A stretch of DNA of 44,113 nt from a virus (taxonomy: Duplodnaviria; Heunggongvirae; Uroviricota; Caudoviricetes): the IMG/VR virus record IMGVR_UViG_2630968800_000004; one strand, given 5' to 3'. A model generated the notes under the pieces. The model was given only the letters and a program-made list of their open reading frames with translations, was not told the DNA's origin and made no database searches. This document shows positions 13,213-15,242 of this stretch, in pieces. The position numbers and the translations under genes were made by a program. Each line of letters opens with the position of its first letter. Position 1 is the stretch's first letter.

Positions 13213-13289
13213 GGCCCTTTAGCTCAGTTGGTCAGAGCGAGCGACTCATAATCGCCAGGTCGCTGGTTCAAGTCCAGCAAGGGCCACCA
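13213..13289 (+). tRNA. tRNA with CAU anticodon, Ile2 (lysidine-type, ileX/ileZ-like) or Met
   Basis: Manual cloverleaf: acceptor GGCCCTT/AAGGGCC, anticodon loop CTCATAA, T-loop GGTTCAAGTCC, 3' CCA. Confidence 0.7.
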
Positions 13290-13290
13290 A

Positions 13291-13367
13291 CCACCACTAG
13301 CTCATCCGGATAGAGCATCAACCTTCTAAGTTGACGGTGCGAGGTTCGAGTCCTCGGTGGTGGGCCA
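13291..13367 (+). tRNA. tRNA-Arg (UCU)
   Basis: Acceptor CCACCAC/GTGGTGG, anticodon loop CTTCTAA, T-loop GGTTCGAGTCC, 3' GCCA. Confidence 0.7.
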
Positions 13368-13369
13368 GC

Positions 13370-13445
13370 GCCGACTTAGCTCAGCAGGCAGAGCAACTGA
13401 CTTGTAATCAGTAGGTCACCAGTTCGATTCCGGTAGTCGGCACCA
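13370..13445 (+). tRNA. tRNA-Thr (UGU), thrU-like
   Basis: Acceptor GCCGACT/AGTCGGC, anticodon loop CTTGTAA, T-loop AGTTCGATTCC, 3' ACCA. Confidence 0.7.
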
Positions 13446-13448
13446 TAT

Positions 13449-13523
13449 GCGGGCATCGTATAATGGCTATTACCTCAGCCTTCCAAGCTGATGATGCGGG
13501 TTCGATTCCCGCTGCCCGCTCCA
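13449..13523 (+). tRNA. tRNA-Gly (UCC), glyT-like
   Basis: Acceptor GCGGGCA/TGCCCGC, anticodon loop CTTCCAA, T-loop GGTTCGATTCC, 3' TCCA. Confidence 0.75.
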
Positions 13524-13637
13524 TGACCTTTCTTAAAGTACTCCAACCTACTGAATCCTAAGGGATACGGCTTTAAGCCTCCTTGCAGAGTTACTTACTG
13601 TAACCCACTGTGTAACCCTCTCAGGGCATGCAGACAT

Positions 13638-15242
13638 ATGATTCAGCTATCCAGTAGTCACAAACTTCCAGCAGTCTACTATCTCTACCAGCGTAACGGC
13701 GTCTACTACTTCCGTCTTAGGGTCAGACAATCAAACAATGATAGAATGACCTCAATATCATTACGGACCAAGGATAGACGCACCGCTATGGCTTACTCAA
13801 GGCACATAAAGGCAGCACTCAAGGCAATACACGCAGACAGACCCAACGCTACCTATGAGGAAATGAGGGAACACCTTAAGGACATCGCTGAGTGTGAACT
13901 GTCTATGGGCCGTTCAGATCTCTTTGAGCCTGACATGAGGGATATCTACCGGGACCAATACGGAGAACTTGGTGAGAGCCTTACCGATGCTCTGGCTAGT
14001 GAGCCGCTAAGCATTGACCAGCATCGTTACATCAATGAGGCCCTGAAGGTGCTAAAAGCCTGTATGAGGCGTATCGAAGCGGGAGACAGTCAGCTTCTGA
14101 TAGATTACGTCGATCTTTTTAATGATATTGATAGGCAAGATAACCAAGCAGACTCTGTGTCCCTATCTGTTAATGCTCCAGAAGTAAAACCAGAAGTTAC
14201 GCCTAGCATTACCATAGCGAGCCTCTTTGAGCAATACGAAGCGGAGAACTATCAGAACTGGAAGCCTGCAACCTTAAGGGAAAACAAGGCGTCACACGCT
14301 GCGTTAATCGAAATATTCGACCATCTGGGTCTCAATGCAGACGCTAACAGGGCTGACATGCTTAGGGTCCGTGATGTGCTCCAGCAGTTACCTAGGAACC
14401 GTAAGCAGCGCTTCAAGGATGTCCCACTTGCTGACCTGTTGAGCCGTGAAGATAAGACAGATTGTCTGGATGTCGTTACCATCAACAACAAGTATCTTAT
14501 TAAGATGGCTGCTGTCTTTAGGTGGGCTGTGCGCAATGACTTGATTAAAAAGAACATGACTGAGGGTCTGGAGCTTAAAGTCCCTCAGCGTAAAGCCTCA
14601 GGGGCCCGTAACGCCTTCTCTACGGAGCAGGTGGGGCAACTACTGGTCGCAGCTAAGGCATACTCTCAGAAGACCTCTGGTAAGCCGTATCATTATTATG
14701 TTACCGCCTTGGCTGCTATCACTGGGGCGAGACTCAATGAAATAGCCCAACTACAGGTCAAAGACGTCAGGACCACTGAGGCGGGAACCGTTTATATTCA
14801 TATCAATGAAGACGATAGTAGTCTACCCGGTAAGAGCATCAAGAACGCTCATAGTGACCGCTGTGTGCCTCTGGTCGATGGGGCCTATGGTTTTATATTG
14901 GCTGACTTTATGGCGCTTGTAGAGACCCGTAGAGGCGCTGACGGTGATGACGCTATGGTGTTCGATGGTCTGCGTCTCATGAAGAACGGTTACGGTGAGC
15001 AGGTGAGTAAATGGTTTAATCGGACGTTGTTGCCTAAAGTCCTCGTAGACCGTAGCGGCTTAGCGTTTCACTCGTTTAGACATACAGTTGCGGCCCAGTT
15101 AAAACAACATGGGGTCGAGTTGGCGTATGCACAGGCGATCATGGGGCATAGTTCAGGGTCTATTACGTACGACCGTTATGCTAAAGAGGTCGAGGTTGAT
15201 AGGCTGGTCAATGTGATGGCTGATGTTTATAAGGAGACCTAG
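13638..15242 (+). CDS. Tyrosine site-specific integrase (534 aa) immediately downstream of tRNA-Gly
   Basis: C-terminal catalytic signature LAFHSFRHTVAAQL...IMGHSSGSITYDRY; N-terminal YYFR-type motif; same orientation as the tRNA array. Confidence 0.85.
   Translation: MIQLSSSHKLPAVYYLYQRNGVYYFRLRVRQSNNDRMTSISLRTKDRRTAMAYSRHIKAALKAIHADRPNATYEEMREHLKDIAECELSMGRSDLFEPDMRDIYRDQYGELGESLTDALASEPLSIDQHRYINEALKVLKACMRRIEAGDSQLLIDYVDLFNDIDRQDNQADSVSLSVNAPEVKPEVTPSITIASLFEQYEAENYQNWKPATLRENKASHAALIEIFDHLGLNADANRADMLRVRDVLQQLPRNRKQRFKDVPLADLLSREDKTDCLDVVTINNKYLIKMAAVFRWAVRNDLIKKNMTEGLELKVPQRKASGARNAFSTEQVGQLLVAAKAYSQKTSGKPYHYYVTALAAITGARLNEIAQLQVKDVRTTEAGTVYIHINEDDSSLPGKSIKNAHSDRCVPLVDGAYGFILADFMALVETRRGADGDDAMVFDGLRLMKNGYGEQVSKWFNRTLLPKVLVDRSGLAFHSFRHTVAAQLKQHGVELAYAQAIMGHSSGSITYDRYAKEVEVDRLVNVMADVYKET

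Follow-up and report, generated by a model that had tools for sequence, protein, structure and literature searches.

A T7-promoter-bearing mini-island in a prophage tRNA-Gly gene of Shigella flexneri and its relatives at glyU in Enterobacterales

How do three perfect promoters of phage T7 come to lie in a lambdoid prophage, directly behind a tyrosine integrase gene and a cluster of tRNA genes? The question is raised by a virus record of 44,113 nucleotides (nt), IMG/VR IMGVR_UViG_2630968800_000004, which in its whole length is referred to here as the window. The answer reached is that positions 13524-17319 are very probably the left part of a small tyrosine-integrase island, inserted by site-specific recombination in the tRNA-Gly(UCC) gene of a defective Shigella flexneri prophage and truncated by insertion sequences (IS). 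Perfect T7 promoters are fixed in S. flexneri genomes because this island remnant sits in a prophage tRNA gene.

The integrase gene, int (13638-15242, + strand), is full-length and encodes 534 amino acids (aa), with a match to PF00589 (2e-17) and an N-terminal DUF6538 domain; it belongs to a family of integrases found in islands at glyU. The gene starts 114 nt past the 3' end of tRNA-Gly and is co-oriented with it, in line with a sequence-only reading of this locus which had noted a long tyrosine integrase about 115 bp beyond the tRNA in the same orientation. The exact protein is annotated as 'site-specific integrase [Shigella flexneri]' and is present on 89 contigs, among them the complete chromosomes CP007037 and CP042980, with the same neighbourhood. 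Nearly all relatives of the integrase, at 65-94% identity, are sited 100-200 bp 3' of the chromosomal tRNA-Gly(CCC) gene glyU.

The point of insertion can be placed to the nucleotide. Prophages in E. coli VL40 and FDAARGOS_944 have the same Ile2-Arg-Thr-Gly tRNA array and are 99% identical to the window through position 13523, after which they continue with lysis genes and have no integrase. Prophage homology stops, and island homology begins, exactly past ...CTCCA (13523/13524): the window corresponds to the empty prophage through ...GCCCGCTCCA, and from the next base onward to the left arm of the glyU islands, with the same junction nucleotide. The core of the left attachment site (attL) is the 3' end of tRNA-Gly(UCC), TTCGATTCCCGCTGCCCGCTCCA (13501-13523, + strand), which shares 20 of 23 positions with the glyU core TTCGATTCCCTTCGCCCGCTCCA. 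It is followed by the island left arm, or P' (13524-13637, + strand), which in the alignment is identical in position and sequence to the left arms of glyU islands. This arm has TGTAACC repeats at approximately 13596-13620, and the same motif stands beside the right attachment site (attR) in relatives; from their sequence these repeats are candidate arm-type sites for the integrase. The usual bacterial attachment site (attB) of the family is chromosomal glyU, and the prophage tRNA-Gly, with its 20/23 identical core, is a secondary site.

It had been proposed from the letters alone that a second mobile element used a prophage-borne tRNA as its attachment site, and this is supported by the exact junction, the empty sites, the glyU relatives and a further insertion in E. 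coli EPSSH018. The integrase is not a fixed part of the prophage, as the uninterrupted VL40 and FDAARGOS_944 prophages exist, nor does it group with lambdoid integrases, its relatives occupying glyU islands. An attachment-site repeat is also found, since the EPSSH018 insertion has reciprocal attL and attR. There, a complete family member of 6,356 bp lies between the prophage tRNA-Gly(UCC) of an Ile-Lys-Thr-Gly array and a holin gene. At its attL the last 13 nt of the tRNA are of the island type, with a TTC triplet, and at its attR the displaced phage-type end, with a GCT triplet, is followed by prophage DNA with the holin gene; read from the sequence, this pattern is the signature of reciprocal site-specific exchange. 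The EPSSH018 and window insertions are taken to be independent because their integrases are only 74% identical.

The hybrid tRNA-Gly(UCC) of EPSSH018 (locus L046, 9080-9154) carries the glyU-type TTC triplet, and the native sequence is kept in the window copy. By reading, the TTC triplet brings mismatches into the T and acceptor stems of the hybrid tRNA, and the native triplet of the window copy may reflect selection for tRNA function or another resolution of the crossover.

Integrase relatives were found at 20 loci in approximately 15 genera of Enterobacterales, and the islands occur in at least 20 species. At least ten glyU islands are bounded by the 23-nt direct repeat TTCGATTCCCTTCGCCCGCTCCA, its copies lying 4.1-6.5 kb apart. 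Strains with an intact island include E. coli FT130, NT1N31, 21AR0133 and EPSSH018 and K. pneumoniae ATCC 13883. Comparison of 23 loci gave a common layout, which runs from int through one to four promoters with the core CACTATAGGGAGA, a conserved leader, AT-rich CTTAAAG repeats, an AT-rich palindrome (GGTGAT...ATCACC) and a further promoter to a set of co-oriented genes and attR. The co-oriented genes encode a Rha-, KilA-N- or Ant-like DNA-binding protein, a 54-76-aa open reading frame (ORF), DUF6971 and a protein of 326-402 aa; the smallest E. coli members, of 4.1-4.3 kb, have a KilA-N-like gene and a gene for a 105-aa membrane protein instead. The window shares with the family an integrase at or above approximately 65% identity, the common left arm directly past ...CTCCA, and same-strand promoters followed by leader, AT-rich repeats and palindrome. 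The co-oriented cargo set (Rha/KilA-N, small ORF, DUF6971 and HK97-fold protein) is missing from it. Of the relatives, the one nearest to the window copy is at glyU in E. coli 21AR0133, the int genes of the two sharing 93.7% nucleotide identity.

The T7 cassette was detected in 113 of 5,426 complete E. coli genomes; eight of the 174 places at which it matched in the E. coli collection are on plasmids. Contigs of 6 kb with the capsid-like gene described below were considered as excised forms and rejected, as they are chromosomal fragments with flanks. A divergent member with a 73% identical integrase is present in S. flexneri SFBU1023 (L019) and E. coli ECMA0423 (L018; int 7001-8626). It adjoins a degenerate glyU, for which ARAGORN gives a 4-nt anticodon or no tRNA, and it has Rha, DUF6971 and capsid-like genes with only a weak match to the promoter core, TGTGCCACTTCACTATAGGGACC. 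S. flexneri may hold two members of the family, one at glyU and one in a prophage tRNA.

The promoters of the window are arranged in three tandem 120-bp units (15255-15622, + strand; 3.1 repeats at 96% identity), each of which has a perfect T7 class III promoter directed rightward. The exact 23-bp consensus TAATACGACTCACTATAGGGAGA lies at 15331-15353, 15451-15473 and 15571-15593, with 0 occurrences expected from shuffled sequences. The sequence-only reading had regarded this cassette as the first cargo of the element, which was wrong: it is a conserved core module of the whole family. Nearly all scanned islands have one to four copies of the core CACTATAGGGAGA downstream of int and on the + strand, the exceptions being the truncated locus L024, which has none, and L011, L012, L018 and L019, which have two-mismatch matches only. 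Within the islands there are two minus-strand matches, both with two mismatches, and the chromosomal flanks have few matches, all with two mismatches. Metagenome copies retrieved through the leader motif CGCATCCTTTCAGGGGCGGGATG had same-strand promoters 60-300 nt upstream of it in 23 of 23 cases.

The specificity region of these promoters (-17 to -8) varies with the host. Islands of E. coli and Shigella have the T7 type (CGACT), in those of Klebsiella pneumoniae the promoters are exactly of the K11 type, AATTAGGGCACACTATAGGGAGA, in many cases together with a stacked T7-type promoter, and other genera have further variants in the same position. In the phage collection, the Klebsiella variant was found in 335 records, 293 of which are Klebsiella podophages, at approximately 10 sites per genome; the window variant matched T7-group phages of Escherichia, Yersinia, Salmonella and Shigella, likewise at approximately 10 sites per genome. 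This is a strong argument, from sequence, for transcription of the islands by the RNA polymerases that T7-like phages make on infection, and the promoters are likely to make the island respond to those polymerases.

Downstream of the promoters lies a conserved transcribed leader (15594-15787, + strand) with the hairpin motif CGCATCCTTTCAGGGGCGGGATG (15641-15663), which is near-invariant among islands. It is followed by an AT-rich array of TTAACTTAAAG-type repeats (15788-15923, + strand), conserved in all T7-type islands, and by the AT-rich palindrome GGTGATGATATTTATAATAATCAATCACC (15943-15971, + strand), which is similar to an element that T7-group phages have downstream of φOR. Leader and AT-rich segment hardly vary between islands with only approximately 80% identity in their integrase genes. 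The best match of the window promoter with its flanks is φOR, which in T7-group genomes follows gene 19, close to the right end. Downstream of φOR, phage phiA1122 has TACCTAAAGTGACCTCTAAGAATGGTGATTATATTGTATTAATATCACCCTAACTTAAAGACC, and the motif TAACTTAAAGAC is also present there; when compared with this element, the palindromes of Klebsiella and Proteus islands gave scores of 38 and 40, which 0 of 300 shuffles reached.

An origin of T7 is made up of T7 promoters with AT-rich DNA downstream of them, and φOL and φOR are origin-associated promoters. Plasmids with a T7 origin and a concatemer junction are said to have been replicated and packaged by T7, in work of Chung and Hinkle from 1990. Given the promoter and AT-rich layout and this knowledge of T7 origins, the island module looks, by analogy, as if built for replication, and perhaps processing, by phage machinery.

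T7 primase pentamers (GGGTC, TGGTC or GTGTC) number 4 on the + strand and 13 on the - strand of the window against approximately 1.8 expected, an enrichment which is inflated because they lie inside repeats. Tandem arrays occur between int and the promoters or past the palindrome (L004 13772-13940, L001 14530-14670, window 15255-15622), with the units GATGACCATAGGC in about 13 copies, TCTCTAGGGTC in about 9 and CACCACYAG in about 6; each contains the primase pentamer TGGTC or GGGTC. A search for structured RNA in the leader gave no Rfam match, a fold z-score of -1.9 and an unfavourable RNAalifold covariation term. The leader does have an 8-bp long-range inverted repeat, ACTTATCG...CGATAAGT (window 15635-15731), which the Klebsiella locus L006 (9480-9580) keeps through a compensatory change, ACTCATCG...CGATGAGT; the overall fold is not significant.

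Scans of all cargo with Pfam, PHROGs and PADLOC recognised only Rha/Ant, weak KilA-N, DUF4145/RAZR and DUF6971. The 373-aa protein of intact members has an HK97 fold, as determined by fold comparison of its structure model. Its 49 homologues, all annotated 'hypothetical', are conserved at 41-94% identity, and as it has no match in Pfam, including the capsid families, the fold comparison alone is informative. For DUF6971 the only PDB match is 5EUR, which is itself 'uncharacterized'. Going by the structure model, phage-type promoters in the intact 6-kb members would drive a gene whose product forms shells or interferes with assembly. The HK97-fold gene is present in intact relatives and absent from the window and from 4-kb members.

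In ten relatives the first gene after int is RAZR/PD-T7-4 (DUF4145/HEPN, PDLC04109; PADLOC 8e-99), which the T7-type E. coli islands lack. The RAZR gene (L006 8624-9256 and nine other loci; L046 10889-11542) overlaps the 3' end of int and precedes the phage-type promoters. It is known that RAZR/PD-T7-4 'often overlaps an integrase gene' (PMC9519451), and the activity of RAZR against T7 has been demonstrated experimentally, the trigger being T7-type portal rings (PMC13017515). The RAZR/PD-T7-4 papers make no mention of the promoters, the capsid-like gene or glyU targeting.

The window copy has lost most of this cargo. An IS911/ISEc52-like element of the IS3 family (15991-17240, + strand) follows the palindrome, and the three T7 promoters now point into it. 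The flanks of this element, tct and gtt, are not a 3-bp target duplication, indicating that the island has lost approximately 560 bp by deletion, and with them its second promoter and the start of the Rha gene. Beyond it there is a remnant of a Rha-family gene of approximately 86 bp (17241-17319, + strand), 92% identical to the gene of the E. coli 21AR0133 island (L001 15107-15192), and recognisable island sequence ends at an IS1 (17318-18091, + strand), past which there is no DUF6971, capsid-like gene, attR or prophage lysis gene. When all cargo proteins of the family were compared with the window by tblastn, only the Rha fragment was found, and RAZR/PD-T7-4 is absent from the window island.

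The window was also searched for a direct repeat of the tRNA-Gly 3' end, with 28-mer and 23-mer cores and with the predicted attR, and no second copy was found there; 23-nt repeats are present in the relatives. The earlier statement that attR could not be identified is therefore correct, IS911, IS1 and IS-mediated deletion having removed the distal part of the island. For the S. flexneri copy attR is predicted to read TTCG(A/G)(T/C)TCCC(TTC/GCT)GCCCGCTCCA and then GCGAGATTTGAG. The cargo genes, attR and the lysis and head genes of the prophage were removed by IS911, IS1 and the associated deletion, and with int, promoters, leader and 86 bp of Rha left, the window copy is immobile and non-functional as an island.

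In another S. flexneri assembly (AFHB01000018.1, L028; 6936-13263) the same int and cassette are followed by an inverted IS911-like copy, downstream of which P22-like tail and injection genes replace the Rha fragment and IS1. This different right flank indicates further IS-mediated rearrangement at the locus.

What intact islands do can be proposed with less assurance. The best reading, which as a whole explanation we consider reasonably probable, is that they are mini-satellites or defence islands of T7-like phages triggered by phage RNA polymerase. The genes downstream of int would have no evident strong expression until a T7-group phage supplies its single-subunit RNA polymerase, which would recognise the island promoters, matched as they are to phages of the host genus. 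The strong upstream promoters would then transcribe the leader and the AT-rich repeat and palindrome module, laid out like φOR and the primary origins, and replication could follow if this module draws to island DNA the replisome of the phage and possibly also the machinery that processes its concatemers. From the second promoter would come the Rha/KilA-N-type DNA-binding proteins and, in 6-kb members, also DUF6971 and the HK97-fold protein. The assembly of phage heads may be diverted or poisoned by these products, which might also package the island; if excised and transferred, the island would be integrated by Int at the tRNA-Gly of a new host. Of all this, integration specificity, the identity and linkage of the promoters, their matching to the host, the HK97 fold and the association with RAZR are observed, and replication driven by the polymerase, excision, redirection of capsids and transfer are proposed. 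Whether the family is a true transducing satellite of virulent T7-like phages is finely balanced. Somewhat more doubtful is the proposal that the glyU islands constitute a minimal satellite class (4-6.5 kb) of Studiervirinae in Enterobacterales, with an RNA polymerase sensor, a φOR-like module, their own HK97 capsids in the larger forms, RAZR and colonisation of prophage tRNAs.

A number of results weigh against this reading. A pattern specific for the phage-side attachment site (attP) had 0 matches in metagenome and viral contigs, and there was no island-sized circular contig and no terminal overlap among the metagenome copies; the viral-contig (IMG/VR) matches are prophage calls from isolate genomes. 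Recognisable replicase, terminase, portal and excisionase genes were not found in the islands by Pfam and PHROGs scans. The structure model of the 373-aa protein is moderate (predicted local distance difference test score, pLDDT, 70), and the 4.1-4.3 kb E. coli members are without the capsid-like gene. The palindrome of the window scores 27 against the φOR element, which is marginal, as 8 of 500 shuffles reach it. When locus L005 (13960-16350) was compared with phage genomes by blastn there was no match at E<=1e-3, the likeness being confined to promoters and short motifs, and the T7 class II pause/CJ motif ATCTGTT is absent from all modules.

As to the insertion itself, there is no attR in the window, so the case for integration is built on attL, the uninterrupted target sites and the analogous insertion in EPSSH018. 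The attL of the window also has the phage-type GCT triplet, whereas that of EPSSH018 has the island-type TTC, a difference which can be accounted for if a heteroduplex overlap was resolved or if the crossover fell at another point. In our interpretation the triplet would fall within the overlap region or adjoin it, and the heteroduplex would have been resolved the opposite way in the window.

Some of these results would suit a pure defence island, the main rival and an explanation we regard as rather unlikely, in which the promoters serve only as an infection sensor and the element is never packaged and spreads by other means. Interference or abortive infection would be brought about by the Rha/KilA-N-type proteins, by the small membrane protein and by the capsid-like protein, the last as a decoy poisoning the assembly of T7 heads, and the tandem strong promoters and AT-rich module would titrate or misdirect RNA polymerase and replisome of the phage. 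RAZR/PD-T7-4 beside int in ten relatives favours such a function, as do the 4.1-4.3 kb members, whose whole cargo is a KilA-N-like protein and a membrane protein of 105 aa, possibly a toxin, and the fact that the scans found no packaging, replication or excision genes, no attP and no circular forms. However, the islands are clearly mobile: they are bounded by attachment sites, occupy two different tRNA-Gly genes and are spread over at least 20 species. The non-coding leader and φOR-like module are more conserved than the genes, which is hard to explain for a mere promoter switch, and a full-length HK97-fold protein at 41-94% identity suggests a shell-forming function. Since T7-like phages with an integrase exist, the islands could instead be decayed temperate T7-like prophages in which int, some promoters and the capsid gene survive, and the co-occurrence of int, T7-type promoters and an HK97 capsid-like gene, with the similarity to the φOR region, agrees with this. 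We nevertheless consider it improbable: the same compact layout of 4-6.5 kb between attachment sites recurs in approximately 15 genera, the islands have no fragments of RNA polymerase, DNA polymerase, portal, tail or terminase genes and, apart from the promoters, resemble no phage genome at the nucleotide level, and by sequence the capsid-like protein matches no capsid family in Pfam.

For the window alone, int and the cassette might be an accessory module (moron) of the prophage, or might have arrived by IS911/IS1 composite transposition or by homologous recombination with glyU. The region is dense in IS and evidently rearranged by them, and the right flank differs in AFHB01, but the junction nucleotide is that of a genuine glyU attL with no IS on its left side, uninterrupted prophages exist, only 10-nt identity blocks are available for homologous recombination, and the EPSSH018 example is free of IS and has both attL and attR; such a route is thus very improbable. 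Contamination by vectors would account for the T7 promoters in that TAATACGACTCACTATAGGG is the commonest vector promoter. The distribution refutes it and leaves it a negligible probability, as the context is non-vector in the 113 E. coli genomes and on the 89 S. flexneri contigs, and K11-type and other cognate variants hold the same position in other genera. The linkage of the promoters and their matching to the host exclude chance as well as contamination.

The tRNA genes of the window were called with ARAGORN, with Rfam as a second scan. There are exactly four, all on the + strand and within 311 bp (13213-13523), as had been read from the letters: tRNA-Ile2(CAU) (13213-13289, anticodon CAT), its isoleucine identity following the PGAP annotation of the homologous E. 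coli prophage, tRNA-Arg(UCU) (13291-13367), tRNA-Thr(UGU) (13370-13445) and tRNA-Gly(UCC) (13449-13523), with Rfam scores of 56-70 bits. The lambdoid late-region position that had been assigned to this array is upheld by a Q-like gene (DUF1133/antitermQ) and an ORF6N gene upstream and, in uninterrupted relatives, by holin and lysozyme genes downstream. The promoter and terminator calls that went with it are soft. A sigma-70-like site, TTTGCA-18-TATTAT (13174-13203, + strand), is present before the tRNAs, yet it is weak, matching at 9 of 12 positions, and such sites are no more frequent in the region than in shuffled sequence. A hairpin with T-run, AACCCGCTTTATGCGGGTTTTTTT (13096-13125, + strand), was read by eye as a tR'-like terminator of the prophage late leader; the terminator scan did not flag it, and an isrK-like Rfam match at 13050-13123 is below threshold (21.5 bits against a gathering score of 50 bits). 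The hairpin and T-run region (13050-13125), after the ORF6N gene, is consistent with a lambdoid pR'/tR' late leader before the array. Apart from these two calls the earlier description of the locus is accurate.

Positions 1701-13523 are a lambdoid prophage, 93-99% identical to the prophage of E. coli VL40, an enteroinvasive strain, and interrupted by several IS elements. VL40 has holin, lysozyme and terminase genes after the tRNA array, none of which is in the window. At 19000-25500 the window has tail-fibre genes (a tail-fibre assembly gene and one for a 429-aa phage_tail_N protein) directly beside the sitABCD iron/manganese transporter operon, which is compatible with these genes being the far end of the same decayed prophage, approximately 25 kb having been deleted. 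A second, unrelated Rha-like coding segment on the - strand (35599-35793), 34% identical to the island Rha, presumably belongs to another prophage remnant.

If the proposed mechanism is true, the islands are natural genetic circuits gated by T7-like RNA polymerases, and the promoter set of each, whether T7-type or K11-type, is a readable record of the podophages preying on its lineage. They would also be among the smallest elements known with a gene for an HK97-fold shell protein, and would show an element-in-element arrangement through the tRNA genes of resident prophages. The islands give a genomic context to RAZR/PD-T7-4, the sensor of the T7 portal, and the case of the window indicates that prophage-borne tRNAs can serve as secondary attachment sites. 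We know of no described satellite of T7, the best-studied virulent phage. In the literature no description was found of glyU targeting, phage-RNA-polymerase promoters, a φOR-like module, a capsid-like gene and insertion in prophage tRNAs, a coverage that is incomplete, so that a prior description is possible; there is a sizeable chance that the islands are a distinct new satellite class.

Several known systems share parts of this arrangement. The tRNA array of the window is in the same position as those of lambdoid and Stx prophages, between Q and lysis genes, following a DUF1133/Q-like gene and ORF6N and preceding holin, and is 99% identical to arrays of E. coli prophages, but its last tRNA has served a second element as attachment site. 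As in other islands of tyrosine integrases that target tRNA genes, in which attP holds a copy of the tRNA 3' end, int lies just 3' of the tRNA and is co-oriented with it, a 23-nt repeat of the tRNA 3' end forms the boundary in the relatives, and the tRNA 3' end of EPSSH018 has been replaced by the island copy. The differences are that the target here is on a prophage and not chromosomal glyU, and that 4-6.5 kb is unusually small. With T7 origins (φ1.1A/B as primary origin, φOL and φOR) the islands share tandem T7 promoters followed by an AT-rich region, and the promoter flanks and the palindrome and TAACTTAAAGAC motifs resemble the element downstream of φOR. Unlike these origins and T7-packaged plasmids, the islands are natural and chromosomal and have no recognisable terminal repeat or pause site, and their similarity to T7 origins is short and at the level of motifs only.

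Among satellites, the capsid-forming phage-inducible chromosomal islands (cf-PICIs) are approximately 10-15 kb in size, have a full head, portal and terminase module and use temperate helpers. The islands differ from these, and from SaPIbov5 with its Ccm, in having one capsid-like gene, no terminase or portal and promoters for phage RNA polymerase. None of the marker sets of PICIs (pri-rep, terS/ppi), cf-PICIs (full head module), P4-like elements (psu-delta-sid-alpha) or PLE was found in scans of the cargo, and no PICMI, VEIME or PLE marker gene was matched there in Pfam or PHROGs. PICMIs/VEIMEs, which are minimalist marine satellites, and the PLE of Vibrio cholerae have their own replication initiators or regulators, and belong to another host clade and helper family, and promoters for a helper RNA polymerase have not been reported for them. 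They are nevertheless, like the islands as interpreted here, very small, integrase-bearing elements which parasitise virulent phages and become active on infection (PMC9618062, PMC7145576).

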